Positions 9 through 46,088 are shown, counted from the stretch's first letter. The stretch is DNA of 64,000 nt from Alphaproteobacteria bacterium (GCA_015062245.1 SUVA01000001.1:12856-76855); one strand, 5' to 3'. The notes: generated by a model not told the origin, from the letters alone. Numbers and translations are program-made.

Positions 9-716
9 TTATTTAGTCGGCTCAATAACCTCTGACTTTTGTGCCAGATTCGGATTTTGTTGAGGTTGTTTTCCCGGCTGTTGTAAATTTTGTTGAGCTG
101 GCATTGTCGGCGCCTGAACAAGAGGTTGTTGCATATTCGGCATACCCCCCATTTGATTTTGACCAAAAGCAGGTTGGAAACCACCTACACCTTGCGCTCC
201 ACCACCCAAAGATGTCAGCAACGCCATATTGATATCATCAAATAATTTGGTTTTACGTAAAACAGGATTTTGTTCCATATACCACAAAATATTCCGACCC
301 TTTTCATCTGTTTGAGTTATGTCCACATTTGCTTGTTGTAAAAGTTGAATAATATATTCATTGGGTGCATAATAAGCTGCAAACAAAATTAAAGGCACCT
401 TTTTGGGAGCATCCTCAATCGGAAAATCATCCAAAGAAACAATTTGATTGGCACGTTTTAAATCCTGCGATAATAAAGCCTGTAAAACATCCCAATTACC
501 ACGACGTATCGCCAATTGCATCAATGTACCGCCACAACGGGGCACTTCATCAAAATTGACATTTTTATTGATTAAATCTTGAATCTGAGTTGCATCACGG
601 GCATCCCGAACCAATGTTTGAAGCGGTGAATAGGCACACTCTGACTTTTGTGGCGCAGCCTGAACCGGCGCAGACATTAAAATCCCCAAAGCACATGTCA
701 ATAAAAGTTTTTTCAT
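9..716 (-). CDS. Secreted ankyrin-repeat protein with Q/P/G-rich low-complexity C-terminal tail
   Basis: Sec-type signal peptide (MKKLLLTCALGILMSAPVQA); two to three ankyrin-like repeats (GGTLMQLAIRRGNWDVLQALL, GRNILWYMEQN); C-terminal about 70 aa rich in Q, P and G. Confidence 0.55.
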   Translation of the reverse strand: MKKLLLTCALGILMSAPVQAAPQKSECAYSPLQTLVRDARDATQIQDLINKNVNFDEVPRCGGTLMQLAIRRGNWDVLQALLSQDLKRANQIVSLDDFPIEDAPKKVPLILFAAYYAPNEYIIQLLQQANVDITQTDEKGRNILWYMEQNPVLRKTKLFDDINMALLTSLGGGAQGVGGFQPAFGQNQMGGMPNMQQPLVQAPTMPAQQNLQQPGKQPQQNPNLAQKSEVIEPTK

Positions 717-737: not shown

Positions 738-1355
738 TTAATCCTTGTATGGATTATTGAACAAAAAAATCTTTTTGTCAACTAAAATATTTTGTTTTAT
801 ATCAAAAAGTGAAACAGTGGACTTGATTCCCTGAATATCCAAAATATCCCATTGTTTCAATTCCAACGTATCTTTATCAATAATCAATGTCAATTCGCCC
901 AATTCTTTTGCGTCTTTTTTGTGGGCGGTGATATAATATTCATCCAAAACATCCTGAACATCTGTTACCACAAAACCCGCATCATCAAAAACCAACTTAT
1001 CACGCAAAATCCATTCCACCGGCGTTGAATTCAATTCAAAATAATTGACCTCTTCCAAATCTTTATCATGATAGATAAAATAACCCTTTGTGGCCACAAA
1101 TTCCAAAGGCGATCCTTTTTCATATTGAAGGCGCATTTGGCCCGGACGTGAAATATAAATCGTCCCCGTTTGCAAATCGTCCTTCATTTTAGAATTGAAT
1201 TGAGCGAACTTTGCCTGTAAAGTACGCATTTTGTTATAGGCCTTTTCCACTTTATTCAAAATCGCCCGTGTTTCGGGGGTATCTATTTTTTTATCCACCA
1301 CCGCATAGGACGGCATTGAAAAAGCCAAAAGCAAAAGTAGTAAAATTTTTTTCAT
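738..1355 (-). CDS. lolA: Outer-membrane lipoprotein carrier protein LolA
   Basis: 205 aa with signal peptide; LolA-like fold signature; located downstream of ftsK as in many proteobacteria. Confidence 0.7.
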   Translation of the reverse strand: MKKILLLLLLAFSMPSYAVVDKKIDTPETRAILNKVEKAYNKMRTLQAKFAQFNSKMKDDLQTGTIYISRPGQMRLQYEKGSPLEFVATKGYFIYHDKDLEEVNYFELNSTPVEWILRDKLVFDDAGFVVTDVQDVLDEYYITAHKKDAKELGELTLIIDKDTLELKQWDILDIQGIKSTVSLFDIKQNILVDKKIFLFNNPYKD

Positions 1356-1372: not shown

Positions 1373-2179
1373 TCATAAAAATGTTATTGTCCTCACAACA
1401 AAAGGTTCTTTCATGTCTTTTTTCCCTTTTATTACACATCCTTTATATCCAAATTCACGATTCGGACATTTAGCACATTCCTCTTTTGTTCCCACAGCAT
1501 AGTCTGTATCGCATTCAAACCACTTTACTGCATGATCGTATCTTAAACTTAATGGTTTATTTGGAGGAGATTCTCTAAATTCACAAAAACCATCTTTAAA
1601 AACACGATTAGGACATTTTTGGCAATCTCGTTCCCCTATCAACTCGCTCTCCTCATAACAATCAGAACAAACATGATTATATCCTCCATCATGTCGTTCA
1701 TAAAAAACAGAAATTTGATTGTCTGGACATTTTTTATGACAATAGAACGAATGTTTTCTTTCCCCATTTCTTACATAAGATAAGTATTTATGATATTCCG
1801 CATTCGGGCAAATTGAACAATCTTCTTTTTCTAGAACTATCAATACATTTGAATCTAAATAATCACATGAATAACAGCTACCATAACTTCCTCGTAAAGG
1901 ATTTTCTTTTGGACATTCTTTTAATACACTGTAAATATACTCGCCTTGATCATAAGAAATTCGATTGGAACAAATATCAAAATCTTTTTTATATTTTTTT
2001 TCACCCAACATAAAAAGCGGATAATCGCAACCTACACAATTTCCAAGACCATCCGCAAATGGCTTATCTGCAGGACAACGATCAGAAAAGTAGAATCTTG
2101 GAGTCCAAGAATCACCATAACAATCAGTGGATATAAAAGCGAATAAAACTATTAGAAGTAATTTTCTCATCCTATTCAC
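1373..2179 (-). CDS. Cysteine-rich secreted protein with repeated C-x2-CPN/CPD modules, unknown function
   Basis: Signal peptide; about 30 Cys in 268 aa; recurring CxKCPN/CPDNQ/CPNRxF motifs; lower GC than flanking ftsK and lolA; inserted between ftsK and lolA. Confidence 0.6.
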   Translation of the reverse strand: MNRMRKLLLIVLFAFISTDCYGDSWTPRFYFSDRCPADKPFADGLGNCVGCDYPLFMLGEKKYKKDFDICSNRISYDQGEYIYSVLKECPKENPLRGSYGSCYSCDYLDSNVLIVLEKEDCSICPNAEYHKYLSYVRNGERKHSFYCHKKCPDNQISVFYERHDGGYNHVCSDCYEESELIGERDCQKCPNRVFKDGFCEFRESPPNKPLSLRYDHAVKWFECDTDYAVGTKEECAKCPNREFGYKGCVIKGKKDMKEPFVVRTITFL

Positions 2180-4355
2180 CTTTCAAAATTTCGCGTTTGC
2201 CGGCCACATTCGGGGCGGATATAATGCCTTCTTGTTCCATTTTTTCAATCAAAGTGGCCGCTTTGTTATATCCGATGGAAAGTCGTCTTTGAATATAACT
2301 GGTGGTTGGTTTTTTATCACGCAAGACGATTGCCACCGCTTGGTCATATAAACTGTCCCCGCTGGATGCACCGCCTGAACCACCGGATTCAGCGCCCGCC
2401 ATTTGGGCCGATTCTTCCACAACGGCATCCAAATATTTGGGTTCACCCTGGGCCGTCCAATGTTTCACCACATTGGCCACATCTTCATCCGATACAAAGG
2501 GACCATGCACACGGGTCGGTTTATTACCCGCCGGCATATACAACATATCACCACGACCCAATAATTGTTCGGCACCTTGTTCATCCAAAATGGTGCGAGA
2601 GTCAATTTTGTTTCTGACCTGGAATGAAATACGGGATGGGAAGTTGGATTTAATTGTACCCGTCACCACATCCACCGAAGGACGTTGTGTGGCCAAAATC
2701 AAATGAATCCCCACCGCACGGGCCATTTGAGCCAAACGTTGAATCAACGGATCGGCCTCTTTACCGCATTGGCCCATTAAATCGGCCATTTCATCAATGA
2801 TAAAGACGATATAAGGAAGCGGTGTTAAATCAAAGGCCTGATCTTCCATAATGGGCTGACCCGTGGCCGGATCAAAACCCGTTTGCACACGCCTTTTTAA
2901 GGTTAAATTCTTTTCTTTGGCCTCACGCAGTTTTTCGTTAAAGCCTTCTATATTACGCACACCCAGTTGGCTCATATTCCGATAGCGGTCCTCCATTTCA
3001 TGAACCGCCCACTTTAACGCCATCAACGATTTACCCGGCTCCGTCACCACTGGGGTCAATAAATGTGGAATACCGTTATAAACCGACAATTCCACCATCT
3101 TGGGATCCACCATGATTAAACGACATTGTTCGGGGGTGAAACGATATAATAAGGATAAAATCATCGTATTGATACCCACGGATTTACCCGAACCCGTTGT
3201 ACCGGCCACCAATAAGTGGGGCATCTTGGCCAAATCCGCAAAAACAGGTCGCCCACCGATATTTTTACCCAACACAATCGGCAAAGCACCTTTATGATTT
3301 TTAAAGCCGTCATCTTCTATCATTTCACGGATATAGACCGTTTCACGATTTTGATTGGGCATTTCAATACCAATCACATTACTGCCCGGCACCACCGCCA
3401 TACGCACGGATACCACTTTCATTTCACGGGCCACATCATCAGCCAAAGTAATCACACGGGAAATTTTAATACCGCTGGCCGGTTCAAATTCATATAAAGT
3501 CACCACAGGCCCTGGGCGCGCCCCCACAACTTGCCCCTGCACTTTAAATTGCATTAAAACACTTTCCAAGGAACGGGAAATCTGATTCATCTGATCCTTG
3601 CTTAAATGCACAGCCGAAGATTCTTTCACGGGCGCCAACAAATCCGAAGACGGCAATTGCAAACCAGATGCCGGTTTTGGCACCAAAGTTTGGGGTGTTT
3701 TTTTAACCGCTTTAATTTTGGATTTCGGGGCCGACTTTTTAATTTTTTCAACCTGATGATGAATACGTAATTTTTTAAATAAAACAGAAATTTTCGCCGG
3801 CAATCTGATTCCTGTTTTATGCAATAACCACCAACAACTTTTTCCCGTGGCACGGCTGATTTTTGCAAAAGGAATTTTTAATGCCCAAACAAATAAAGCC
3901 ATATCCAATGCCACCCATAAAATCATCCAATAGCCTTTGGGAATCATCCACCATCTGTTTAAATAACGACCGATAAAACCACCAACGCCGGCCTTGAACC
4001 AAGAACGGGCTGTTTCATATTGAAAATCGCCCAACAGCCACAGCGTCCACACAAAACCCAAACCCACCAAAAACAAACGCAATTTCAACCAAGCAACCTG
4101 ACGCCATAAAAAGAGGGCAAAAATCAAACAGACAATCGGAAAAACAAAAGCCATTACCCCCAACATTTGCAATAAAATATCCGCTGTCCATGCCCCGATT
4201 GGTCCCAAATAATTTTGCATATTATCGCTGGATGTATTCCATGAATTATCATGCGCATGATAACCCGCCAAAGCGATTATCACCAAAGCGGATATCATTA
4301 TCCAAAAAACAGAACGAACTTTCGGATGCGACCAAAAACGTTTAAACATCTTCAT
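2172..4355 (-). CDS. ftsK: DNA translocase FtsK
   Basis: N-terminal multi-TM region, P/S-rich linker, FtsK motor domain with Walker A (GTTGSGKSV) and C-terminal gamma winged-helix domain. Confidence 0.9.
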   Translation of the reverse strand: MKMFKRFWSHPKVRSVFWIMISALVIIALAGYHAHDNSWNTSSDNMQNYLGPIGAWTADILLQMLGVMAFVFPIVCLIFALFLWRQVAWLKLRLFLVGLGFVWTLWLLGDFQYETARSWFKAGVGGFIGRYLNRWWMIPKGYWMILWVALDMALFVWALKIPFAKISRATGKSCWWLLHKTGIRLPAKISVLFKKLRIHHQVEKIKKSAPKSKIKAVKKTPQTLVPKPASGLQLPSSDLLAPVKESSAVHLSKDQMNQISRSLESVLMQFKVQGQVVGARPGPVVTLYEFEPASGIKISRVITLADDVAREMKVVSVRMAVVPGSNVIGIEMPNQNRETVYIREMIEDDGFKNHKGALPIVLGKNIGGRPVFADLAKMPHLLVAGTTGSGKSVGINTMILSLLYRFTPEQCRLIMVDPKMVELSVYNGIPHLLTPVVTEPGKSLMALKWAVHEMEDRYRNMSQLGVRNIEGFNEKLREAKEKNLTLKRRVQTGFDPATGQPIMEDQAFDLTPLPYIVFIIDEMADLMGQCGKEADPLIQRLAQMARAVGIHLILATQRPSVDVVTGTIKSNFPSRISFQVRNKIDSRTILDEQGAEQLLGRGDMLYMPAGNKPTRVHGPFVSDEDVANVVKHWTAQGEPKYLDAVVEESAQMAGAESGGSGGASSGDSLYDQAVAIVLRDKKPTTSYIQRRLSIGYNKAATLIEKMEQEGIISAPNVAGKREILKGE

Positions 4356-11439: not shown

Positions 11440-12831
11440 ATGAAGCATTTGTCACTATTGACAACATTGTTATTGTCATCATCTATGGTTTATGCGGGAT
11501 GGCTAACCGAAGATTATAAAGGTGATTGCTTGGAAATGATGTGTGATTGTGTGGAAAAAGACGGAATTGGATATTGTTGTCCGTCAGGGACTTCGTTTAA
11601 CGGAAAAGGAGATGCCCATATTGAATATACGCCCTGCAAGTGTTTGGGCGCAAATACATACTATAACACGACCAGCCAAAAGTGTTTATCAAAACCCACA
11701 TGCAATCCATGTCAAAAATTGAATGTAGCCACCGGTACTTGTGTGCCGGATACCTCCAAGAACAATCTGGCAGTCGGCACATGTGGAAAGTGCAACAATG
11801 GTTCGGTTATTACAGATATGACAAAGGTAACCCCCTGTAAGACCTGTAATACCACAAACTGGACATTGACAAATAGAGCCAATGGTCAGGCAGTCGGCAC
11901 ATGTGGAAAGTGCAACAATGGTTCGGTTATTACAGATATGACAAAGGTAACCCCCTGTAAGACCTGTGATACTACAAACTGGACATTGACAAATAGAGCC
12001 AACGAAACACAGGTTCAGGATGTTTGTCATATGTGCAAAGACGGCAATGTTGTATTGAAGGATTCAACAAAACAATTTATTTCCAATAATACTTGTGTTG
12101 AATGTTTGGCTGATTATGGAACAGGTAAATCCGGTGCCTGTACAACTGAAGCAAAGCCATTGTGTCAAAATAATGTATGTCAAGCATGCCCGGCCGGACA
12201 AATTTGGAATGGAACCTCTTGCGCAACACCAAGAATTTGTACTATTTTGTATAAACAAAAAAATAAAGTTGGAAATTCTAGTTACATATCTGGCGAATGT
12301 TGTAGCCCTGATCAAAAACTTGTATCAAGTACAGGTAATACACTTTTTAATGGTTATGATTTAAATAAGACAAAATACGGATGTTGTTCTGCCGATAAAG
12401 CTTATGGAGATAGCAAATGTTGCTCTTCAAGTCAAGAACCAACAAATGATGGTTGTTGTTCTTCAAGTAAAGTGTATACCAAAAACGGCATTAAAAAATG
12501 CTGTGATGGAACGGTGTCTAATAATAAAACAGTGTGTTGTACGAATAAAATAATTACTGTTGATTTTCAGGAAAGTTACACTTTTAAGTTTGATGGAAAA
12601 GTCCATGTTAAAACATATTCTGTTGGTGGAAAACATCACAGCGGTTATTGTCGTGTTTATTTAAATGGAAAACAGATAAATAAACTAGACACAGGTGGAC
12701 ACCAAGAAACAACGATAAATAAAGAAGCAGATATAACTGTCAAAAACGGCGATCGTATTTCTGTCGATGGTCATCGTGGCAGAGGCTGGCAAGAATACAT
12801 AAAAATCACATATCCCGTTTGCGACGGATAA
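11440..12831 (+). CDS. Cysteine-rich secreted protein with CC doublets, an internal 40-aa tandem repeat and a Cys-poor C-terminal beta-rich domain
   Basis: Signal peptide (MKHLSLLTTLLLSSSMVYA); many CxxC and CC motifs (CCSSSQEPTNDGCCSSSK); C-terminal about 100 aa lacks Cys. Confidence 0.65.
   Translation: MKHLSLLTTLLLSSSMVYAGWLTEDYKGDCLEMMCDCVEKDGIGYCCPSGTSFNGKGDAHIEYTPCKCLGANTYYNTTSQKCLSKPTCNPCQKLNVATGTCVPDTSKNNLAVGTCGKCNNGSVITDMTKVTPCKTCNTTNWTLTNRANGQAVGTCGKCNNGSVITDMTKVTPCKTCDTTNWTLTNRANETQVQDVCHMCKDGNVVLKDSTKQFISNNTCVECLADYGTGKSGACTTEAKPLCQNNVCQACPAGQIWNGTSCATPRICTILYKQKNKVGNSSYISGECCSPDQKLVSSTGNTLFNGYDLNKTKYGCCSADKAYGDSKCCSSSQEPTNDGCCSSSKVYTKNGIKKCCDGTVSNNKTVCCTNKIITVDFQESYTFKFDGKVHVKTYSVGGKHHSGYCRVYLNGKQINKLDTGGHQETTINKEADITVKNGDRISVDGHRGRGWQEYIKITYPVCDG
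11769..12002 (+). repeat. Near-perfect 120-bp tandem duplication (2 copies, 2 mismatches) inside the Cys-rich gene
   Basis: ggcagtcggcacatgtggaaagtgcaacaatggttcggttattacagatatgacaaaggtaaccccctgtaagacctgt... recurs at 11769 and 11889; encodes AVGTCGKCNNGSVITDMTKVTPCKTC(N/D)TTNWTLTNRAN. Confidence 0.9.
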
Positions 12832-28184: not shown

Positions 28185-29942
28185 TTACTTCTTATATAAC
28201 GGACGGGGTTGATAACTTGTATGCAACAAGTGGTGCGACCGTTCGGACAAAGGCTTACCCAAAAATTCGTCATATAATTTCTTTACATCCGGATTTTGGT
28301 GTGAGCAACGTTGTTTTGACCCACGATCATCCTGCATCAAACCGGCCATACGGGCCTGACGGATTTCGTCTGTCACACCCAAAGGCTGACCGCCACCACC
28401 GACACAACCGCCATCACAGGCCATCACCTCAATAAAGTGATAGGGCGGTTCTTCGCCTTTTTGTTCGGCTTCACGGACTTTTTCCAACAACGCCTGAACA
28501 TGGCCGATACCATGGGCAACGGCAATGCGGACTTCTTTACCCGCTAAATTCAAGGTCATTTCTTTAATACCTTTATCCAAGCCCAAAATCGGTTTGATTT
28601 CCAAAGCGTCTTCGGGCATTTCTTCACCCGTCACAACGGCATGAACGGTACGCAAAGCAGCCTCCATCACGCCACCTGTGAAACCAAAGACCGTGGCAGC
28701 CCCCGTATAAGAACCCAAGGGGCTGTCGGCCTGTTCTTCGGGCAGATTGACAAAGTCAATGCCGGCCTGTTTAATCATGCGGGCCAATTCTCGGGTGGTC
28801 AAAGACACATCCACATCTTGAAAGCCCGAGGAGAACATTTCTTCCGAACGCAGGATTTCAAATTTCTTCGCCGTACAGGGCATAATTGAAATCACACGCA
28901 TATTTTTGGCTTCCACACCGATTTTATCGGCATAGTAGGTCTTGCTTAAAGCACCCACAATTTCGTGCGGGGATTTGCAAGATGAAAAGTGCGGAATCAT
29001 ATCGCTATAGTATTTTTCCATATAATCCACCCATGCCGGACAGCAGGATGTAATCATCGGTAAAACACCTTTACCATTTACAAAGCGTTCAATAAATTCC
29101 GTGCCTTCTTCCATAATAGTGACATCTGCCCCAAAGTTGGTATCAAACACGGCATTAAAGCCCAAACGGCGCAAGGCGGCATATAACTTACCCGTTGTGA
29201 TTTCCCCCGGTTTATAGCCAAAGGCTTCACCGATAGCCACACGAACGGCTGGTGCAATTTGAACCACACAGTATTTGTCTTTATCCTGCAACATATTCCA
29301 CACATATTGTGTGTCATCACGTTCGGTTAAAGCCCCAGTCGGACAGTGGGCTGTACATTGACCGCACTTGATACAGGGGCTATTGCCCAATTTTTCATCC
29401 GCCGCCGGTGAAATATGTGTATTGATACCACGTTTTAACATGGACAAAGCCCACACATTTTGGGTGTTTTGACAAACTTCCACACAGCGACCGCAAAGGA
29501 TACATTTGCGCGGATCCAACACGATACTTTTGGTGGAATCATCCACGGGCAATTCTTCCTTGGTGGGTGTAATATCGGCAAATTCCGTATCACGAATACC
29601 AAAGTCGGCCGATAATTTTCTCAATTCGCAGGTATCGTTTTTCAAACAGGTCAAACATTCGTTCGGATGTTTGCTGAGTGTCAGTTTCAATACTGTGCGA
29701 CGAGCCTCAATAATATCGGGATCACGGGTAATGACTTCCATCCCTTCGGCAACCGGCGTACAACAAGAACGCACCATACGGCCATTGGATTTGACAATAC
29801 AAATACCACAGGCAGCAGTCGGAGGTAAATCCGGATGATGACACAGTGTCGGGATTTTAATTTGAACGGATTTGGCTGCATCCAAAATGGTTGTACCGGC
29901 CGGCACTTCCACGGTTTGAGAATCAATTGTTAATTTTACCAT
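28185..29942 (-). CDS. hydA: [FeFe]-hydrogenase catalytic subunit HydA (M3-type with N-terminal 2Fe-2S and three 4Fe-4S accessory clusters)
   Basis: H-cluster signatures L1 ITSCCPAWV, L2 MPCTAKKFE, L3 EVMACDGGCVGGGGQP; N-terminal CxxxxxxxxxxCxxC 2Fe-2S, H/C-ligated cluster (HPNECLTCLKNDTC), CILCGRCVEVC and CIKCGQCTAHCP ferredoxin motifs. Confidence 0.85.
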   Translation of the reverse strand: MVKLTIDSQTVEVPAGTTILDAAKSVQIKIPTLCHHPDLPPTAACGICIVKSNGRMVRSCCTPVAEGMEVITRDPDIIEARRTVLKLTLSKHPNECLTCLKNDTCELRKLSADFGIRDTEFADITPTKEELPVDDSTKSIVLDPRKCILCGRCVEVCQNTQNVWALSMLKRGINTHISPAADEKLGNSPCIKCGQCTAHCPTGALTERDDTQYVWNMLQDKDKYCVVQIAPAVRVAIGEAFGYKPGEITTGKLYAALRRLGFNAVFDTNFGADVTIMEEGTEFIERFVNGKGVLPMITSCCPAWVDYMEKYYSDMIPHFSSCKSPHEIVGALSKTYYADKIGVEAKNMRVISIMPCTAKKFEILRSEEMFSSGFQDVDVSLTTRELARMIKQAGIDFVNLPEEQADSPLGSYTGAATVFGFTGGVMEAALRTVHAVVTGEEMPEDALEIKPILGLDKGIKEMTLNLAGKEVRIAVAHGIGHVQALLEKVREAEQKGEEPPYHFIEVMACDGGCVGGGGQPLGVTDEIRQARMAGLMQDDRGSKQRCSHQNPDVKKLYDEFLGKPLSERSHHLLHTSYQPRPLYKK

Positions 29943-29954
29943 CGTTTTATTTCC

Positions 29955-31715
29955 TTATCTTTTTGTGTTGATATTACAGGCATTGATTTCTTTTTCGGTT
30001 TCAACCGCATCCGGTTCATTCCCGTCAATCAATAACGCATCATATTCTTCTTTAAAGAACTTCATGGTTGACAAAACCGGATTGGGGGCTGTTTGGCCTA
30101 AACCACACAAAGAAGCCTTTTGCATGGCGTTTCCGATTTCCTTGATTTTGGCCACATCCGCTTTGGTGCCTTTGCCATCGGCAATTTTGTTCATTAATTG
30201 CAACATTTGATATCCACCAATACGGCATGGCGCACACTTACCACAGGATTCATCCACCGTAAAGCCCAAATAGAACTTGGCAATTTCAACCATACTGTCG
30301 TCTTCATCCATGATAATCATACCGCCTGAGCCCATCATAGAACCGATTTTTTTCAATTCTTCATAGCATAACGGCATATGCAGTTCGCTGGCCGGTATCA
30401 CACCACCGGAAGGACCGCCCGTTTGAACGGCCTTAAAGGGCTTACCGGAACTGGTCCCGCCACCGACGTCGTTCACCATTTCACCAACGGTTGTTCCCAT
30501 CGGCACTTCCACAAGACCTGAATGTTTCACTTTACCGGTGATGGCAAAAACTTTTGTGCCTTTGGACGTTTCGGTGCCAACTTCGCTGAACCATTCGGGA
30601 CCGTTGACCATAATCGGTGCAATATTGGCCAAAGTTTCCACGTTGTTGATGGCCGTCGGCTTATCAAACAATCCTTTTTGTGTCGGGAATGGTGGACGGG
30701 GACGTGGTGTACCGCGCTTACCTTCCACAGACGACATCAGGGCTGTTTCTTCACCACACACAAAGGCCCCAGCCCCATAACGGATATCCGCCATAAAGTT
30801 AAAGTCTGTGCCAAAAATGTTGCGGCCCAAAATACCATAGCGTTTGGCCTGTTTAATTGCCAATTCCATCCGCTGAATCGCCAAAGGATATTCGGCACGG
30901 ATATAGAACCATCCGTTGGTGGCCCCTGTCGCATAGGCACCAATCATCATCCCTTCCAATACGGCATGGGAACCACCACCTAAAATACACGAATCCATAT
31001 AGGCGCCCGGATCGCCTTCATCACCGTTACAAATCATAAACTTTTCACCGTCAACCAAGGGCGATTTGGCCAGCATTTCCCACTTGACACCTGTGGGGAA
31101 TCCGCCACCGCCACGACCACGCAAGCCGGACTTTTTAATCACTTCCAACACTTCTTCGGGTTTCATGGTCAAAGCCTTCATCAACCCCTGATAACCACCG
31201 TTGGCAATATATTCGCCCAAATCTTCGGGATCCGAATGGCCCAACAAACGCAATACGATTTTACGTTGTTTTTGGAAAAACGGCAAATCCAAAGAAAGTT
31301 CTTGTTGTTTCAAATAATCCGAAGTATTGATTTCGCCTTCTGATTTCAACGCCGGTGCCACATGCTCGGCCACAATCAATCGGGCCATATCGGGCGTTAC
31401 ATGTTGATATAATACAGGCTTTTGACCTTTAATTTCCACACGGGCCAAAGGACCGGAGGCACACAACCCCATACAACCGGTGCAAACCATACGCACATCG
31501 GCTTCTATACCGGCCGATTTTAAAGCTTCTTTAAAAGTATCAATCACACTGGATGCACCACCTGAATGACAGCTGGTGGCATTACAGGTGTAAATGGACG
31601 CCTTAAAATGGGCCACACGTTCTTTAAATTCATCACCCAATTTTAACAATGTTTCTTTTTGGGTGCGCCCCAAAGCTTTTAATTTTTCAACTTGTTCTTG
31701 TGACAATTCTACCAT
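29955..31715 (-). CDS. hydB: NuoF-like flavoprotein subunit HydB (FMN/NAD(P)H-binding, 2Fe-2S + 4Fe-4S clusters)
   Basis: GRGGGGFPTG FMN motif; N-terminal thioredoxin-like 2Fe-2S domain (CTGCMGLCASGP); C-terminal CGKCAPCR-type ferredoxin motifs; 586 aa as in trimeric bifurcating hydrogenases. Confidence 0.8.
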   Translation of the reverse strand: MVELSQEQVEKLKALGRTQKETLLKLGDEFKERVAHFKASIYTCNATSCHSGGASSVIDTFKEALKSAGIEADVRMVCTGCMGLCASGPLARVEIKGQKPVLYQHVTPDMARLIVAEHVAPALKSEGEINTSDYLKQQELSLDLPFFQKQRKIVLRLLGHSDPEDLGEYIANGGYQGLMKALTMKPEEVLEVIKKSGLRGRGGGGFPTGVKWEMLAKSPLVDGEKFMICNGDEGDPGAYMDSCILGGGSHAVLEGMMIGAYATGATNGWFYIRAEYPLAIQRMELAIKQAKRYGILGRNIFGTDFNFMADIRYGAGAFVCGEETALMSSVEGKRGTPRPRPPFPTQKGLFDKPTAINNVETLANIAPIMVNGPEWFSEVGTETSKGTKVFAITGKVKHSGLVEVPMGTTVGEMVNDVGGGTSSGKPFKAVQTGGPSGGVIPASELHMPLCYEELKKIGSMMGSGGMIIMDEDDSMVEIAKFYLGFTVDESCGKCAPCRIGGYQMLQLMNKIADGKGTKADVAKIKEIGNAMQKASLCGLGQTAPNPVLSTMKFFKEEYDALLIDGNEPDAVETEKEINACNINTKR

Positions 31716-36018: not shown

Positions 36019-36603
36019 ATGCGTTTTTTCACTTTTGTTTCGGGATTATTTATCGCCCTACCCCTTTGGGCAAATGATTTGATGAATTTAAGAAGTTACG
36101 GCAATGATTCGCCCAACAAACTATATTTATTTTCGTCATTGGCCTGTCCGCACTGTGCCCACTTTCATCAGGATGTTTTACCTGAAATTGAAAAAAACTA
36201 TGTAAAACCCGGCAAAGCAAAAATCGTGATGGTAGATATGGTTATGAACAATGCCAGCTTATTGGGTGCCATATTGTTGCGTTGCGCCCCAAAAGAAAAA
36301 CAACACGAAATTGAAAAAGAATTATACCAAGAACAAAAACAGTGGGCCTTTGATGAAAAAAAAGCCAAAATATTTTTGGCTGATATTGCCCATAAATACG
36401 GAATTTCCGCCGGTGAATTTGAAACGTGCATTCAAAATAAAGATTTACAAAAAACAATTATTACCGACCAAAAAAAATTATCCGCTACTTATGGCATCAC
36501 CCATATGCCAACCCTTATGTTTCGCAAAAATGAACAGGTGTTTTTATGGAAAGGAAGCGAAAAAGACGAAATTATGACAGGCCTTTCCCAAGCTTTTGAA
36601 TAA
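36019..36603 (+). CDS. dsbA: DsbA-family thiol:disulfide oxidoreductase
   Basis: Signal peptide; thioredoxin-fold CxxC active site (LACPHCAHF). Confidence 0.7.
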   Translation: MRFFTFVSGLFIALPLWANDLMNLRSYGNDSPNKLYLFSSLACPHCAHFHQDVLPEIEKNYVKPGKAKIVMVDMVMNNASLLGAILLRCAPKEKQHEIEKELYQEQKQWAFDEKKAKIFLADIAHKYGISAGEFETCIQNKDLQKTIITDQKKLSATYGITHMPTLMFRKNEQVFLWKGSEKDEIMTGLSQAFE

Positions 36604-37411: not shown

Positions 37412-38605
37412 TTACTTACATAACACACTGCTCAGCGTGAAATCCCATCCATCACGACCTTGTTGAGAACCTGTTCCGTTCATATACATCGGATAATTAC
37501 AATCCGAATATATAGTATTTATGCAAGAAACCCAACCATGCGCAGCTATTGAACAGGATCCAAATAATTCTGCACAACCCAATTCTTCGGGTTTGACCAT
37601 TTTCTCTTTTCCACCACATATGGCCACGCCATCACTGAAAGAAACTCCTCCGGAAATATTAACTTGAGTTCCTATCCGATTCCCTTCAGAATCTTTTATT
37701 TCTGTACAAGAAGATGGATTTTCAGCACAATAATCCTCATATTTTGGAAGCTCTTTGTTCGGATTTAAACAAATACATTTTTCCAAACTATTATCACAAA
37801 CTGCATACGCACCAGCACGCATTTCTTCCGCTGTGCATTCTGCGCAATCATACACACCACATGCAACAGCATTGCTGGATACAGCACAAGACCAACTACC
37901 ATTTACTGATTGATACCAATATCCCTTTAAAGCATTACAGCATTCTTCACCTGTACAGTCTTTTGTTCCAAATTCACATTTGCCATTCGAACAAGTGGTT
38001 GTTTTACCATCGGCGGTGGTGCAAGAATCTGTTGATGAAATATCACCTGTTTCAGAATCACAACATTGAGAGTCATATCCCACACAACAATCTTTTTTAC
38101 ATTCACCGCCACACCATTTATAGCCGGCAGCTTCGCACTTTCCACCTGTTGCGTCATCGTTATAATCAGCGGCGACTTTGTCGCTGGATAAATTATTATT
38201 ATAGGTTAAGGTCAATGTTGTTTCATTACATTCGGCTTTGCGAACCATGCCGCCTGACATCTTTTCCATTTGCTCACATACGGCCGAATCCATACCGGTG
38301 ATTTCCATTTTAAATTGTTCGTCATTGACTTTTTCCGGTGTGCCAAATGTTCCATATTTACCATTGCCAAAATCTTGAACATTTAGGGGTTTATCGGTTA
38401 GAATTTGGGAGGATATGGTGGTGGCAAGCATACTGGCCTGATGTAATAATTCATTCGCTTTGTGTTTTTTCATGGCGACACCATAACCATATACACCACC
38501 CACGGACAAGACACCCACGATGGCCAGTACGCCCAGCATTTCAACCATACTGCGCCCCTTTTGGCTTCTTTTATAGTTTTTGTTTGTTTTATTTTTTACT
38601 GACAT
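37412..38605 (-). CDS. Type IVb prepilin-like protein with large cysteine-rich C-terminal domain (candidate minor pilin / tip adhesin)
   Basis: Start at 38605 with RBS GAAAGGAGTC. 17-aa basic leader ending in Gly (MSVKNKTNKNYKRSQKG), then RSMVEMLGVLAIVGVLSVGG with Glu at +5, resembling TcpA/CofA N-terminal helices. About 380-aa mature part has some 40 Cys including CC doublets. Confidence 0.6.
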   Translation of the reverse strand: MSVKNKTNKNYKRSQKGRSMVEMLGVLAIVGVLSVGGVYGYGVAMKKHKANELLHQASMLATTISSQILTDKPLNVQDFGNGKYGTFGTPEKVNDEQFKMEITGMDSAVCEQMEKMSGGMVRKAECNETTLTLTYNNNLSSDKVAADYNDDATGGKCEAAGYKWCGGECKKDCCVGYDSQCCDSETGDISSTDSCTTADGKTTTCSNGKCEFGTKDCTGEECCNALKGYWYQSVNGSWSCAVSSNAVACGVYDCAECTAEEMRAGAYAVCDNSLEKCICLNPNKELPKYEDYCAENPSSCTEIKDSEGNRIGTQVNISGGVSFSDGVAICGGKEKMVKPEELGCAELFGSCSIAAHGWVSCINTIYSDCNYPMYMNGTGSQQGRDGWDFTLSSVLCK

Positions 38606-38650
38606 TTTTTGACTCCTTTCTTTTATTTGTTCAGACAGTAAATACCTTTT

Positions 38651-38740
38651 GTCATTCCCCACTTGATGGGGCATCCATAAGGATTTAATTCTATGGATCT
38701 TCGTGTCAAGCACGAAGATGACAGTGATGGGGTGGAATGA
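38651..38740. repeat. MITE-like element of about 90 bp with terminal inverted repeats (GTCATTCCCCAC ... GGGGTGGAATGAC), copy 1
   Basis: The 5' 27 nt GTCATTCCCCACTTGATGGGGCATCCA and the terminal GGAATGAC recur at 63489..63575; internal hairpin CTTCGTG-tcaag-CACGAAG. Confidence 0.45.
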
Positions 38741-38754
38741 CAAATACAGTTTAA

Positions 38755-39120: not shown

Positions 39121-41064
39121 TTATTCTGATAAAGTTTCAATCTCTATGCGATTTTTATGGATATAAATAAAATAAATCTTATTTCCTTGGGGGATTAGTT
39201 TATCAATTCGGCAATGCCCACTTTGAATCGGTAAAACGGCAAAATCGGCATTTGCGCAATAATCCGGTGATAAAGCAATCCGTTTACTTTTTATTTCAAC
39301 TATATTATCCTTTATTTTTTCCGACCGATAAAAGCCCAGTTTGTTTTGCCATAAAGTTTGTATCCAATCTTGACCATTTTCATTCGCATAGAAACGGCCA
39401 TTTTGAATATAAGCGATACTTTGGCCTTTATCCGCCACCATCATTATGGGATAATCTGAGTTAAATGCCGTCAATGTGCCCATTAAAATAAGAATGACAC
39501 CCATGATTTTACCCCAGTATTGCCAAAGACAAATAAAGATAATGCCAAAAATGATAAGGCTTAAACCGACCACGCTGAATGAAGGAAGGCTGATTTCGGC
39601 AAAGGGTAATTTTGAAATCCAATCTGCCATCTGTTCAATCCATTCAATAACTGTTCCCGCCCATTGAAAAAGGGCTGAATCCATTTCAAAGGGCATCAAC
39701 AAACATCCGATAAACAATAACGGCATAATAATCAGGGAAAATAAAAAGCTGAACGCAAGATTGCCCAAAATACCATAAGGTGTTATTTGATTAAAGTGCC
39801 ATATAATCAATGGTGTCAATCCCAATGAAATAGCCACACCCAAGGCGCAAAATTCACAAAAATGACGGATATATTTATTTTGGTTGGGCATAAATTGTTT
39901 GAATTTTTCATGAACGCTGACTAAAATTAAAACCGATAAAAAGGAAAGTTGAAAGCTGATAGACATTAAATTTTCCGGCCTGAATATCAACATACAAAAA
40001 CCGGCCAAAATAATTGTTCTGACAGAAAACGTTTTGCGATTGACCAATATCCCCAAAAACACCAAAGCAATCATTAAATAAGAACGAACGGCCGGAATTT
40101 GAAAGCCTGACAACGCCAAATAAAAGCCTGTGCCAATCAATGCAAAAACAGCGGCAATCTTTTTGGTATTCACATACAATGTTAAACGACCACACACAAC
40201 ACCCAATCCCCGAATCAAGAAAAACAAAAATCCCGCCAACAAAGCCATATGAAAGCCGGAAACAGATAAGACATGGACAATCCCTGAACGGCGATAAATT
40301 TGATATAATTCAGGGCTGACCAATCTTTGTTCACCGGTAATCAAAGGTGTGATGATACGGGCCTGATTTTCGGGTAGTATTTGAAAGACATGTTCGGTAA
40401 TTTGATGGCGCAAGCGTTGAAAAATGGTTGGCTTTGCATTTATATCCCGAATATCCAAAACCTGAACAACTTTGCCGATAGCACCGATTTTTTCAAAATA
40501 TAATCTTTTGGCCTGAGAGGTATGAAAGGGTGCTTTAATGCTTACGGGTGGCACCAAATTGACCTTTAATTTGACCCGTTGACCAACCTTTAACAACGGT
40601 TCCAAATTATCGTAATGCAGACGAATTTTATCGGGTTGCTTGATAACGCCCATCGGATAAGAGATGTTATTTAAAATCAAAATCTGTTTATCGGGTAAAA
40701 CAGTATTATCCGTAATTGTGGCTACAATAATTGTATTGGAAAGTTTTTGATTTAAAACTGGATGTGCCACCATCTGATAACGCAAATGACATATTGAACA
40801 ACCCAGCATCACAAATGTTATAAAAAGCATAAAACAAAAGACAAAATCTTTCTTATAAAATAAAATCAATCCCAGCACGGCCAAAGGTAAAATAATTATA
40901 CTTAAAATCGTGGGGAAGTGATAAAAGTATAACAATATCCCCGTCATAAATGCCAAGAAAGACCATATCAGGTGTTCCTGAAACATAGATTTAATTTCTG
41001 CTTTTAACTGTTTAATTTTGGGATGATACAGGGACAACATGGGGGATATTATTTTGAATTTCAT
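39121..41064 (-). CDS. comEC: DNA internalization competence protein ComEC/Rec2 (no C-terminal metallo-beta-lactamase domain)
   Basis: Polytopic membrane protein with Competence domain motif (ITGEQRL ... HVLSVSGFHMALLAG). True start may be an internal Met (e.g. 40986), since the track start overlaps the upstream lipoprotein gene. Confidence 0.8.
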   Translation of the reverse strand: MKFKIISPMLSLYHPKIKQLKAEIKSMFQEHLIWSFLAFMTGILLYFYHFPTILSIIILPLAVLGLILFYKKDFVFCFMLFITFVMLGCSICHLRYQMVAHPVLNQKLSNTIIVATITDNTVLPDKQILILNNISYPMGVIKQPDKIRLHYDNLEPLLKVGQRVKLKVNLVPPVSIKAPFHTSQAKRLYFEKIGAIGKVVQVLDIRDINAKPTIFQRLRHQITEHVFQILPENQARIITPLITGEQRLVSPELYQIYRRSGIVHVLSVSGFHMALLAGFLFFLIRGLGVVCGRLTLYVNTKKIAAVFALIGTGFYLALSGFQIPAVRSYLMIALVFLGILVNRKTFSVRTIILAGFCMLIFRPENLMSISFQLSFLSVLILVSVHEKFKQFMPNQNKYIRHFCEFCALGVAISLGLTPLIIWHFNQITPYGILGNLAFSFLFSLIIMPLLFIGCLLMPFEMDSALFQWAGTVIEWIEQMADWISKLPFAEISLPSFSVVGLSLIIFGIIFICLWQYWGKIMGVILILMGTLTAFNSDYPIMMVADKGQSIAYIQNGRFYANENGQDWIQTLWQNKLGFYRSEKIKDNIVEIKSKRIALSPDYCANADFAVLPIQSGHCRIDKLIPQGNKIYFIYIHKNRIEIETLSE

Positions 41065-43130: not shown

Positions 43131-43807
43131 TATCGTCCCCCTGTTTTGACGGCAATTTGTTGCAAATTGGCACTGCTTAAACCGGCCTGAGTGGAACGGT
43201 CTGATTTTTTCTTGCCCCCTGAACCTGTCATTTCACCGTTGGGAATGTAAATTTTACCCAAAGGCACAGGAATGTATAAAGTTTGCGGATGGCCCACACC
43301 GGCCGAAGTTAAAATTTGTTGATTGATATATTTGTGAATCAATTCATGAAAGGGGTGAATGGGAATCAAAACCAAATTATCCATATCCAAATTGCCCCCA
43401 TATAACAACGGATATTTTAAATGCACCGTCCAATTGGTGGGTAAAATCCCCTTGGACATATAAAAGATACTTTCTTCGGATATATCAGCACTGCGTAAAT
43501 CGTTCACATATTGGGCGACTAAATCTTTTAAAAAAAAGTGTTTAAGTTTTTCCAGTTTTTGATGAAATTCAGCTTCATTTATCGTATGCGGATAATAATT
43601 GGCCGACATCAATTCCATGCCAGCAAAATTTTCCTGTTGAAATAAATCCACCCAATAATCTTGATTTTTTATATCCGAATCCAACCCCTCCATCAAACCA
43701 TCCAAACCAATGGAATCCGTTTGTGTTTTGGGTGCCGAATTATCCATCAACTGGTCCCAGTTGTCATAAATTTCATTGCCGTCCAATTCTGTCAGATTTT
43801 CATCCAT
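43130..43807 (-). CDS. Acidic hypothetical protein co-operonic with the T4CP (candidate adaptor/chaperone)
   Basis: 225 aa; D/E-rich N-terminal half; Cys-free; overlaps the T4CP stop by 8 nt. Confidence 0.45.
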   Translation of the reverse strand: MDENLTELDGNEIYDNWDQLMDNSAPKTQTDSIGLDGLMEGLDSDIKNQDYWVDLFQQENFAGMELMSANYYPHTINEAEFHQKLEKLKHFFLKDLVAQYVNDLRSADISEESIFYMSKGILPTNWTVHLKYPLLYGGNLDMDNLVLIPIHPFHELIHKYINQQILTSAGVGHPQTLYIPVPLGKIYIPNGEMTGSGGKKKSDRSTQAGLSSANLQQIAVKTGGR

Positions 43808-46088
43808 TTAAATCATCCTTGGGTAGTGGTGGTTGAAAAGTCGGTGCTGAGGTCGGTGGTGCAAAAACCCCCTGACCCTGAGGCGGTAAAATTGCCTGAA
43901 CGGGTTGCGCATTATTTTGAAGTTGAATTTGTTGTTCTGTACTTTCTTGCGGTTGAGGTTCTTCCGATTTTTGTTGTTGGTTTTCCGGCGCCCGTCTGTC
44001 CACAATCCATTGGGGAATATATGGGGCGGTCGGAATCTGAGTCTTTTTCAAAAAGCCTTTATCCAAATAATACCGTGGTGCATCGGCCAAAATCGGATGC
44101 GATAAGAACCCTTGGAACAAAACATACTGTTTTAACATATCCAAACTTAAAATATCCGAAGCACTGACCACATCTGATTTTTGCAATTGACGGGATACGT
44201 TTTGCGAAAAGTCAAACATTTTTTGTCCTCCGCCTTCTTGTTTGGATGTGCTTTTAACTTCAATCGTTTTGGAACCAATCATTTTTACAAAACGTTCGGC
44301 TGTTTGTTCGTTGTTTTGGGATAAAATAACTTTTGCCGCCGTTGTTGAAATAATTGTTTCCAAATCGTCTTTACCGTATTGGCCGGAAATTTGGCCTAAA
44401 TCCTGCCCGATTAACAAATAGGCCACCTTTTGTCCACGACCAACAGCCGGACCGTTTTTCACACAATCCAGTTTTGGCATTTGCGGGAATTCGTCCAACA
44501 CGAACAAAACAGGACAAGGCCCACATTTTTTGCCGTCATTACCCACATACCCCGGCGGATTAGCAATTAAAAATGAACTGACCAATTCCACAAAGATACC
44601 CGTAATCACGTTCAAAGCACGGGCATCCACTTGGTTAATGGACAAATAAACGGAAATCGGTTTGATTTTGCCGTCCGCCGGATCCACCATACCACGCAAA
44701 TCACGGAAAGTAAAATCACTGAATTTGGTTCGTTCTTTTACAGCCGCATTTTTAAAAATACTGATACCTGACAAAGCGGTTGATAAAATTGACCCACGTT
44801 CTTTATCGGGCGTACTGGATAACTGATTTAATTCGGCAATAGCCCGACGGGCATAAGCAAAGCGATTACTTTCATTCACGGCCGCATCCAACACGTCCTT
44901 CATGGGATCGGCCATCATGGCCATTTGATCGCCTTCATCGGAACGGCGTTTAATATCGGCGGCGATTTTCATCTGCATATCGGTCAGCCATTCCAAAATC
45001 ATGGCAATACACGGTTCATGCCCGTGCCAGATTTCAGGCAAACCTTCCCACGTACCGACAGGCGCATAGTTATTTAAATTCAGCTGTCCTTTTTTCAAAG
45101 CATCCAAAGCAATCAAGGCACTGTTATCGGACATATCGGCATAATAGGTGGCCAAAACATTGGCGTCTTCTTGATCAAAAGAACCTTCGGATAACTTGTT
45201 GATAAAATAATCGTTGGCACGGGCCCGTTCGCATTTGCTGGCAATAAAGTGCAAAAAACCACTCATGGCATTACGACCTGTTTTACACCAGTGCGGATCT
45301 GCTCCCCCTTTGGGTTCTTCCACCAACACGGCCACCATAGAGTCAATATACATATCTCGGGCCGGTCCCAACGGGGGCAATGCCGTGGGCGATAAAGGAT
45401 TCCAGCTGGGATAAAAGACACCGTTTTGCGGTTCGTCTTGGGCGCCCCAGTTGATGATAAAAACAGGGCCTATTTTATTACGATAACCTGATGTTTGATA
45501 GCATAATTCGGGTTTCACGTCATTGACAATAATACTTAAAGAATCAGATTCAAAAATCGTGGGAATAACCACGCCGGCGGTTTTACCCGTTCCCGGCGGT
45601 GCCACCACCAAGGCGGATAAAGTGTTGGGCATTTTTAACAAACGCCCCTTAAAACGCCCCAAAACGCAACAGAATCCATCAAACAGCCCCATCTTTTTAA
45701 TATCCTGATAGGAGGCCAAACGGCCACTGCCAAAAACGGTGGACAGATTGGAATATGGGTTCGTATACAATCCGACAAAAATAATAATAGGAATAACGGC
45801 AATCGGAATAAACGGCAAAAACATTGCCACAGGCACAGGGGAAATTTCACGAAATTGTTTTATCCAATTGGCATAGGTAATAATAATTTTGCTGGGATGT
45901 AAAAATGCCTTTGACCAAAAATCCCAAGCAATGCCAACCAACGAAATATCCCCCGATAACAACCAATGTGTGATTGGTAAAATCAACAAAGACAATATCC
46001 ACGAACAAAACAATGCAAAAAGAACAGAAAGTATAACATGAGAAATATACTTATTTTTTTCTTTATATTGATCGTCTGCCATTTTCAT
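43800..46088 (-). CDS. Type IV secretion coupling protein (VirD4/TraG/DotL family ATPase)
   Basis: Two N-terminal TM helices, then FGSGRLASYQDIKKMGLF. Walker A VVAPPGTGKTAGVVIPT (compare VirD4/TraG APTRSGKGVGxVIPT) and Walker B VLFVLDEFPQMPKL. About 60-aa Q/P-rich disordered C-terminal tail. Confidence 0.8.
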   Translation of the reverse strand: MKMADDQYKEKNKYISHVILSVLFALFCSWILSLLILPITHWLLSGDISLVGIAWDFWSKAFLHPSKIIITYANWIKQFREISPVPVAMFLPFIPIAVIPIIIFVGLYTNPYSNLSTVFGSGRLASYQDIKKMGLFDGFCCVLGRFKGRLLKMPNTLSALVVAPPGTGKTAGVVIPTIFESDSLSIIVNDVKPELCYQTSGYRNKIGPVFIINWGAQDEPQNGVFYPSWNPLSPTALPPLGPARDMYIDSMVAVLVEEPKGGADPHWCKTGRNAMSGFLHFIASKCERARANDYFINKLSEGSFDQEDANVLATYYADMSDNSALIALDALKKGQLNLNNYAPVGTWEGLPEIWHGHEPCIAMILEWLTDMQMKIAADIKRRSDEGDQMAMMADPMKDVLDAAVNESNRFAYARRAIAELNQLSSTPDKERGSILSTALSGISIFKNAAVKERTKFSDFTFRDLRGMVDPADGKIKPISVYLSINQVDARALNVITGIFVELVSSFLIANPPGYVGNDGKKCGPCPVLFVLDEFPQMPKLDCVKNGPAVGRGQKVAYLLIGQDLGQISGQYGKDDLETIISTTAAKVILSQNNEQTAERFVKMIGSKTIEVKSTSKQEGGGQKMFDFSQNVSRQLQKSDVVSASDILSLDMLKQYVLFQGFLSHPILADAPRYYLDKGFLKKTQIPTAPYIPQWIVDRRAPENQQQKSEEPQPQESTEQQIQLQNNAQPVQAILPPQGQGVFAPPTSAPTFQPPLPKDDLNG

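Follow-up and report, generated by a model that had tools for sequence, protein, structure and literature searches.

What does a small, cysteine-rich gene do between ftsK and lolA, two neighbouring genes of a conserved operon, and how long has it been there? The gene, here named orfX, lies in a 64,000-nt stretch of DNA (the window) from an Alphaproteobacteria bacterium (GCA_015062245.1 SUVA01000001.1:12856-76855), in which the open reading frame (ORF) list and the Pfam assignments of both flanking genes confirm an intact reading frame at this site (Table 1). An earlier reading of this DNA, made without database searches (the sequence-only reading), took it for a lineage-specific insertion of a disulfide-rich secreted protein, perhaps toxin-like or adhesin-like in fold. 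In the interpretation that we favour, with a probability of roughly 0.55, orfX encodes an accessory ligand-binding rod of the envelope or the extracellular space, which is under diversifying pressure and is unrelated to the functions of FtsK and LolA.

The state of the junction in related genomes provides the first part of the answer. A word-indexed search of 5.8 billion proteins gave only four homologues of orfX, the best of which (P0003, 454 aa, 36% identical) occupies the same slot in a fully syntenic contig of the metagenome-assembled genome (MAG) UBA3768. The neighbouring proteins on this contig are 76-89% identical to those of the window (83% in the case of FtsK), compared with 36% for orfX; the ankyrin-repeat protein encoded just downstream of lolA also diverges faster than its neighbours (61%). 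A scan of GTDB for LolA, with one genome per species, returned 18 MAGs with LolA 81-98% identical in amino acid sequence, which derive from rumen and stomach compartments of cattle, goat, sheep and yak and from human (Hadza) gut. The slot is empty in 11 of these, with 4-30 nt separating ftsK from lolA, in keeping with the expectation that the two genes are normally adjacent, while in the other seven it holds a cysteine-rich ORF with a signal peptide (177, 202, 226, 248, 304, 454 and 507 aa; 12-41 Cys). Two further metagenome contigs carry a 247/248-aa allele that overlaps its neighbours by 4 nt on both sides, and an intact ORF of this type (177-507 aa) is thus found in eight species and two further contigs. 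Carriers are interleaved with non-carriers in all three subclades of a neighbour-joining tree built from the FtsK C-terminus and LolA. This patchy distribution shows orfX to be an accessory, dispensable gene, and it argues that orfX has long been present at the ftsK-lolA site rather than being a private insertion of the lineage represented by the window. The sequence-only reading was therefore right in seeing an accessory insert, probably exported and disulfide-rich, within a conserved gene pair, but not in regarding it as lineage-specific, as homologues occupy the identical slot in 7 of the 18 relatives. Nor does a known annotated family fill the junction throughout the group, the slot being empty in 11 of 18 genomes and its occupant matching no family.

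The age of the slot is illustrated by the divergence of its alleles, which (with one allele class left out) are mutually 24-38% identical, with a mean of 30%. The window and the loci L014 and L030 belong to sister species, and their flanking DNA is 84-91% identical. In comparisons of the window with L014 and L030, DNA homology is lost approximately 30 nt after the start of orfX and regained about 9-16 nt ahead of lolA, and no nucleotide similarity is detectable within orfX itself. Calculations by the Nei-Gojobori method yield a synonymous divergence (dS) of 0.21-0.33 and a nonsynonymous divergence (dN) of ca. 0.012 for the flanks of these sister species, compared with a dN of 0.64-0.73 and a saturated dS (1.4 or more) for orfX, a divergence as deep as that from the far more distant UBA3768. 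Since acceleration in situ would not saturate synonymous sites, the orfX alleles predate the species that carry them and have been replaced or sorted at a fixed slot, presumably by recombination through the conserved flanks. The notion of a recent, one-off insertion is not sustained by these values, which suggest instead an old slot whose cassettes have been recurrently exchanged and lost.

Within a single allele class, represented by L022, L036 and L037, the dN/dS ratio is 0.11-0.13 for orfX compared with 0.02-0.09 for ftsK and lolA; orfX is under purifying selection in this class, 3-5 times weaker than that acting on its neighbours. In the closest pair (L022 and L037), dS is 0.38 for orfX and 0.08 for the adjacent ftsK, a 4.5-fold difference that points to a history of the cassette separate from that of ftsK. 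In the population to which the window belongs, orfX does not vary: identical DNA, with 0 mismatches in 798 nt, is found on eight contigs from different samples, although these were retrieved by exact protein identity and the sample is biased.

The insert consists of exactly one ORF. No direct or inverted repeats flank it, an Rfam scan of the insert and a tblastn search of orfX against phages and plasmids gave no match, and no marks of a diversity-generating retroelement, an invertase or silent cassettes are found at the slot. The insert thus appears to lack the marks of a mobile element or genomic island (integrase, transposase, repeats, tRNA target, or phage or plasmid likeness).

Two starts are available to orfX. 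The ATG at 2170, placed 1 nt past the ftsK stop codon TAG (2174-2172), is the likelier, because the public record (P0001, 'MAG hypothetical protein, Alphaproteobacteria bacterium'), which is identical to the 265-aa product, uses it and because the related loci place the ATG of the downstream gene at this same position (TAG-G-ATG), empty sites included. An exact protein look-up with the 268-aa product of the GTG start gave no record. The 8-nt overlap with ftsK reported earlier applies to the GTG start only. Cotranscription of ftsK, orfX and lolA is plausible, as neither start leaves space for a promoter or terminator, and consensus scans for these elements around orfX gave matches only at the frequency expected from shuffled sequence. 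In five related loci, the orfX stop codon overlaps the lolA ATG as ATGA. The base composition is, as previously noted, lower in GC than the surroundings: orfX has a GC content of 32.7% (window 40%) and a third-position GC content (GC3) of 17.8%, compared with 38% for lolA and 45% for ftsK, and every homologue in the slot has a GC3 below that of its own lolA. Upstream of ftsK, Pfam assigns Hda.

The N-terminus of the predicted protein supports the signal peptide proposed in the sequence-only reading: a basic start and a hydrophobic run precede a plausible cleavage site (MRK-LLLIVLFAFIS-TDCYG/DS), and M-K/R-K followed by a hydrophobic run opens all ten junction alleles. The G-x4-E motif of type IV pilins is absent from the orfX start, MRKLLLIVLFAFISTDCYG. 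A lipobox ([LVI][ASTVI][GAS]C) is also lacking, the sole N-terminal cysteine being preceded by S-T-D, with a disallowed Asp at position -1. In most junction alleles the signal peptide contains no cysteine, and P0005 (LLLCSC) may be an exception that does have a lipobox. The idea that orfX had borrowed its signal peptide from lolA (MRKLLLIVLFAF and MKKILLLLLLAF, respectively) was dropped, as other alleles resemble their own LolA leaders only generically.

The orfX product contains 21 cysteines, rather than the approximately 30 first reported; 20 of them belong to the mature protein and the remaining one to the signal peptide. Four modules of ca. 50 residues make up the mature protein. The repeats described earlier are real, but the two motifs by which they had been recognized (Cx2CPN and KCPDN) are the C- and N-terminal halves of a single module, which in its full form reads C1-P-x-(D/E)-x-P … C2-x2-C3 … C4-x2-C5-P-N-R … C6 (consensus CPxDKPLxxxDGxCYxCD…x10-18…CxxCPNRxxxGxxC). 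Module 4 ends in EECAKCPNRE…C.IK., a C-terminal motif that is conserved across the alleles, and the cysteine framework is invariant across the family alignments.

Table 1. Positions of orfX, its parts and other genes in the window (residue numbers refer to the 265-aa product; AF2, AlphaFold2)
Feature	Position	Strand	Basis
orfX coding sequence, 265 aa	1373..2170	-	ATG 2170; stop codon 1373-1375; ORF list and sequence
orfX, longer ORF call, 268 aa	1373..2179	-	GTG 2179; ftsK overlap 8 nt
orfX predicted Sec-type signal peptide, residues 1-19, MRKLLLIVLFAFISTDCYG, without lipobox or class III pilin motif	2114..2170	-	Read from sequence
Module 1, residues 32-85, four Cys, without C4 and C6, pattern CCCxCx	1916..2077	-	Module parsing and unit-profile alignment
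Module 2, residues 86-147, six Cys, long beta-hairpin insertion ahead of C6	1730..1915	-	Parsing/unit profile; AF2 strands 124-134, 137-146
Module 3, residues 148-200, canonical six-Cys unit CP…CxxC…CxxCPNR…C	1571..1729	-	Parsing/unit profile
Module 4, residues 201-248, four Cys, without C1 and C2, pattern ?xCCCC	1427..1570	-	Parsing/unit profile
C-terminal tail, residues 249-265, low model confidence	1376..1426	-	Alignment: not conserved; AF2 pLDDT <50 at residues 260-265
ftsK, DNA translocase, upstream operon gene	2172..4355	-	Pfam FtsK_4TM, FtsK_alpha, FtsK_SpoIIIE (5e-69), FtsK_gamma
Spacer orfX-lolA, 17 nt, with lolA ribosome-binding site AAGGAA	1356..1372	-	Sequence
lolA, periplasmic lipoprotein carrier, downstream operon gene	738..1355	-	Pfam LolA 8.5e-21
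Ankyrin-repeat gene with signal peptide and Q/P/G-rich tail, just downstream of lolA	9..716	-	Pfam
Exported Cys-rich repeat protein, 463 aa, 43 Cys, Sec signal peptide	11440..12831	+	Read from sequence
[FeFe]-hydrogenase large subunit adjoining NuoF-like flavoprotein	28185..31715	-	
DsbA-like thioredoxin-fold protein, candidate periplasmic disulfide oxidase for orfX and other Cys-rich exported proteins	36019..36603	+	Pfam Thioredoxin_4 2.2e-25, DSBA 1.1e-6
Type IV pilin-like protein, …KG/RSMVEMLGVLAIVGVLSVGG…, Cys-rich C-terminal region (listed as ORF 37412-38743)	37412..38605	-	Translation; start Met 38605 inferred
ComEC competence channel	39121..41064	-	
VirD4/TraG-type coupling protein	43800..46088	-	T4SS-DNA_transf 1.6e-54

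The pairing of the cysteines is suggested by the manner in which they are lost. Among family units that lack C4, C6 is also gone in 12 of 13, and among those that lack C2, C1 is also gone in 12 of 13 (unit profile with positional extension). This paired loss argues for disulfides between C1 and C2 and between C4 and C6, and hence between C3 and C5. The number of mature cysteines is even in all ten junction alleles (20, 26, 16, 40, 14, 24, 34, 12, 24 and 24), an observation that depends on cleavage sites assigned by eye, as a fixed cut at residue 22 gives odd counts in four of the ten; the overall tally obtained with this fixed cut (49 even, 24 odd) is unreliable. With its signal peptide, its even number of mature cysteines and an oxidase gene in the window, orfX appears to belong to the class of disulfide-bonded exported proteins. 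The DsbA-like gene adjoins the pilin-like, cysteine-rich gene of the window.

Structure prediction gave a confident model. The AF2 model of orfX, calculated from a family alignment of 24 sequences, has a predicted local distance difference test score (pLDDT) of 85.4 and a predicted template modelling score of 0.69; beta-hairpins make up nearly all of it, and short helices occupy the CxxC turns. A single canonical unit, modelled from 61 unit sequences, yields two beta-hairpins and one short helix (pLDDT 78).

The repeat itself extends far beyond this junction. A profile of the ten alleles retrieved 36 proteins, all of them unnamed. When a second profile, built from 61 individual units, was run against 1.84 billion cluster representatives (50% identity), 743 matched at E <=1e-3, 449 at E <=1e-10 and 122 at E <=1e-30. 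We define the 'CPNR' six-cysteine repeat family by the presence of at least two units matching C1-P-x-D-K-P…C2-x2-C3…C4-x2-C5-P-N-R…C6, to which orfX, with four units, belongs. Searches of Pfam, NCBIfam, PADLOC and PHROGs found no family for orfX (the best match, Ribosom_S30AE_C at E 0.049, is noise), and the repeat region of the relatives has no curated Pfam or NCBIfam match. Sequence-profile searches of the PDB returned noise only (defensin, CopA, cytochromes c), and a PDB fold search with the model gave no significant match. The CPNR repeat thus appears to be a previously undescribed family, with no name, domain model or structural relative. Every named member is a 'hypothetical protein [Alphaproteobacteria bacterium]' from a MAG, and all are bacterial.

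Of particular relevance to the site of action are the N-termini of the relatives. Sec-type N-termini are present in ca. 63 of the best 140 new representatives, and ca. 49 begin with a signal resembling the class III signal of pilins (…G/RSMVEMLGVLAVIGVLS…, Glu at +5). In the pilin-type relatives, a hydrophobic helix and a globular region are followed by long unit arrays, the proteins reaching ca. 1,900 aa; the start G/RSMVE with a hydrophobic helix is present in P0009, P0015, P0016, P0019, P0031, P0033 and P0036. P0039 (1616 aa) combines a signal peptide, VIT and DUF2135 with 14 canonical units, and teneurin-type EGF repeats stand beside the units in other members, such as P0118 (1767 aa). Units or half-units number 14-32 in P0075 (1897 aa), P0118 and P0039, all of them very large proteins of the pilin-like or VIT-domain type; P0075 has the C-terminal half-unit only (EEC.RCPNRYW), within a super-repeat of ca. 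100 aa, together with a poly-acidic insert.

At other loci, family members are found as single genes among housekeeping genes (recF-gyrB, near groESL, near rpsB-tsf and beside secE-nusG). In the first of these (L033 3988-5828, WILK20-1 scaffold_1755), P0011 (275 aa) and an unannotated 333-aa gene lie between recF and gyrB, with a gap of 3 nt before gyrB; the dnaN-recF-gyrB string is a second classic, conserved series of housekeeping genes with a family member inside it. A MORN-repeat gene immediately precedes both P0006 and P0004 (L032 4228-6683 and L011 178-2329, respectively), P0006 overlapping its MORN gene by 4 nt with an ankyrin-repeat gene nearby, and the combination of a MORN gene with a family member may be a recurrent pairing.

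The closest parallel to the pilin-type relatives is provided by modular pilins, in which a pilin carries a grafted binding module and displays it at the tip of the pilus (PMC8179133). As in the modular type IV pilins PilB of Streptococcus sanguinis, CofB of enterotoxigenic Escherichia coli (ETEC) and TcpB of V. cholerae, many orfX relatives combine a class III-like signal and a pilin helix with a bulky C-terminal array; in contrast to those proteins, the grafted module is an unrecognized disulfide-rich repeat rather than a vWA domain, a lectin or the CofB beta-repeat. The window also encodes a pilin-like, cysteine-rich protein (probable start at 38605, basic leader, Glu at +5, 30 Cys), whose N-terminus is of the same type as those of the pilin-fused relatives P0009, P0015, P0016 and P0019 and whose C-terminal part gives a weak match to the orfX family profile (E 0.0045).

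A second parallel is with hypervariable loci that have conserved flanks, at which pilin, flagellin, capsule or O-antigen alleles are replaced; the VSPs of Giardia are CXXC-rich variable surface proteins. The orfX slot shares with such surface loci the sharp boundaries of divergence, the alleles much older than the species, the presence and absence states, and the purifying selection within an allele class. It differs in that orfX is a single small gene in an essential housekeeping operon rather than part of an island, and in that its surface exposure is putative. Compared with Giardia VSPs, orfX shows no homology (no Pfam match).

Taken as a mechanism, the interpretation of orfX as an accessory binding rod would run as follows. 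The protein would be exported by the Sec pathway into the periplasm, where its modules would fold into pairs of beta-hairpins stapled by three disulfides, with the DsbA-like oxidase as a candidate catalyst, and together the four would make up a stiff rod. Mature orfX would be located in the envelope or extracellularly and would bind a ligand there, as an adhesin or receptor. Recognizing agents (phage, protist or host immunity, or competitors) would maintain very old, divergent alleles together with the presence and absence states, all of which could be exchanged when homologous recombination takes place in the conserved flanking genes, ftsK and lolA. The operon position would then supply expression, often with translational coupling to lolA, and a scaffold for recombination, rather than a role in segregation or lipoprotein sorting.

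Several observations weigh against this interpretation. A plain Sec signal peptide such as that of orfX reaches the periplasm only, and within the 64 kb of the window we recognized neither secretion nor pilus machinery. In contrast to the modular pilins, orfX starts with a standard Sec signal peptide and lacks a pilin module, and the link to the surface is one of association: surface display is suggested because relatives carry the repeat on pilin-like or VIT-domain proteins, and the adhesin-like character proposed earlier draws on the same indirect evidence. The disulfide pattern was deduced from paired cysteine loss and not from coordinates, and as the C1 and C6 calls of the automated table are noisy at insertions, losses of C1 only or C6 only are in part artefacts. 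All sequences come from metagenome assemblies, a concern mitigated by the identical copies on many independent contigs. Finally, the low GC3 and high divergence could in part reflect weak constraint rather than diversifying selection.

Among the alternatives, the one that survives best, though it is unlikely, is that orfX is a host- or protist-directed mimic, a bacterial version of the furin-like, TNFR, ephrin-receptor-like or EGF repeats of eukaryotes that is secreted to engage a eukaryotic partner of these gut or rumen bacteria. The units do resemble the furin-like, TNFR, ephrin-receptor-like (GCC2_GCC3) and EGF repeats in their length of ca. 40-50 residues, six cysteines, CxxC motifs and short beta-hairpins, and in the way in which those repeats stack into rods in extracellular proteins. 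Furthermore, distant members give sub-threshold Pfam matches to Ephrin_rec_like (P0075, 6.7e-4) and TNFR_ELAPOR1 (P0070, 2.6e-6), the EGF repeats next to the units of P0118 are of true teneurin type, ankyrin, MORN and type IV secretion (VirD4, VirB4) genes lie near family members, and a chain of the R-spondin furin repeat is present among the Foldseek noise (E 1.4). However, orfX and its close relatives have no significant hidden Markov model (HMM) or structural match to such families; in fact, the furin-like, TNFR, Ephrin_rec_like and EGF Pfam profiles gave no match to orfX or its close homologues at E up to 10. The units have their own signature (CPxDKPL…CPNR) and a probable 1-2, 3-5, 4-6 pairing of their own, every named member is bacterial, and type IV secretion effectors do not normally use a Sec signal peptide.

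A secreted antibacterial toxin or bacteriocin-like protein, with its allele diversity arising from interbacterial competition, is improbable. A small, cysteine-rich, hypervariable and accessory protein that is predicted to be exported would fit such a role, and an insect defensin (E 0.039) is the best PDB sequence match, although one within the noise. Yet a slot with a single ORF precludes an adjacent immunity gene, no toxin domain was found in Pfam or NCBIfam and no match in PADLOC, and the long module arrays behind pilin-like N-termini or VIT domains suggest a structural or binding role. The toxin-like fold entertained in the sequence-only reading thus finds no support.

Still less probable is a periplasmic metal binder, in which the CxxC…CxxC pairs, rather than being engaged in disulfides, would hold metal in sites of the zinc-ribbon or rubredoxin-like kind. 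The two CxxC motifs of each unit are separated by 10-18 residues, a spacing similar to that of zinc-ribbon and rubredoxin-like knuckles, and there are noise-level Pfam matches to Ribosomal_L37e (0.074) and PknG_rubred (0.032), none of them significant as HMM matches. Against this, cysteines are lost in pairs that cut across the tetrad (C4 with C6, C2 with C1), leaving three of four putative ligands, which is incompatible with a four-cysteine site; a unit has six cysteines rather than four, and cleavage sites placed by hand leave an even total in the mature proteins; and the predicted export, together with the DsbA-like oxidase gene in the window, favours disulfides.

We regard as very improbable a role as an operon partner, that is, a periplasmic factor that would work alongside LolA in the traffic of lipoproteins or alongside FtsK where the cell divides. 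The tight packing between ftsK and lolA and the frequent ATGA coupling to lolA would be expected of such a partner, but 11 of the 18 close relatives do without orfX while retaining LolA at 81-98% identity, the orfX alleles are 24-38% identical compared with an almost unchanging LolA and FtsK, members of the family are also found at unrelated loci, and orfX, having no lipobox, would not be a Lol substrate. The remaining possibility, that orfX is a decaying or spurious ORF filling an AT-rich insert, in line with its very low GC3 and its lack of a known domain, is effectively refuted by a dN/dS of ca. 0.11, intact frames in all carriers, the invariant cysteine scaffold, the 743 related representatives and the confident AF2 model.

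Other genes of the window and of related contigs bear on the biology of the group. The VirD4/TraG-type coupling protein and the ComEC channel of the window, and a VirB4 homologue near a pilin-type family member at L034 10782-13226, appear to indicate a capacity for type IV secretion and DNA uptake in the group, which is relevant to allele exchange. The hydrogenase and NuoF-like pair looks like a bifurcating hydrogenase and would fit an anaerobic, fermentative lifestyle. A further exported, cysteine-rich repeat protein, encoded at 11440..12831, has a near-perfect internal duplication (VGTCGKCNNGSVITDMTKVTPCKTC[ND]TTNWTLTNRAN) and a CC-rich C-terminal half, and lies outside the orfX family.

A wider proposition is tentative, and we hold it with some doubt: that the CPNR unit is a new disulfide-stapled beta-hairpin fold serving uncultured gut and rumen Alphaproteobacteria as a general extracellular binding module, deployed either at pilus tips, in giant modular pilins of up to ca. 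1,900 aa, or as free secreted rods, and that the slot in the essential operon is dedicated to recombination and holds a trans-species polymorphism of anciently diverged alleles, the empty state included, by negative frequency-dependent selection. With 743 representatives, the CPNR family is an apparent preferred extracellular building block of these little-known anaerobic bacteria, and a solved structure might reveal a new small disulfide-rich fold. The locus is an example of a housekeeping operon that accommodates a dispensable and hypervariable gene, whose alleles are apparently swapped or dropped while the expression of lolA is preserved. If orfX is exposed at the cell surface, it would be a candidate strain-level marker and a handle on the interactions of these bacteria with phages, protists and hosts in the rumen.

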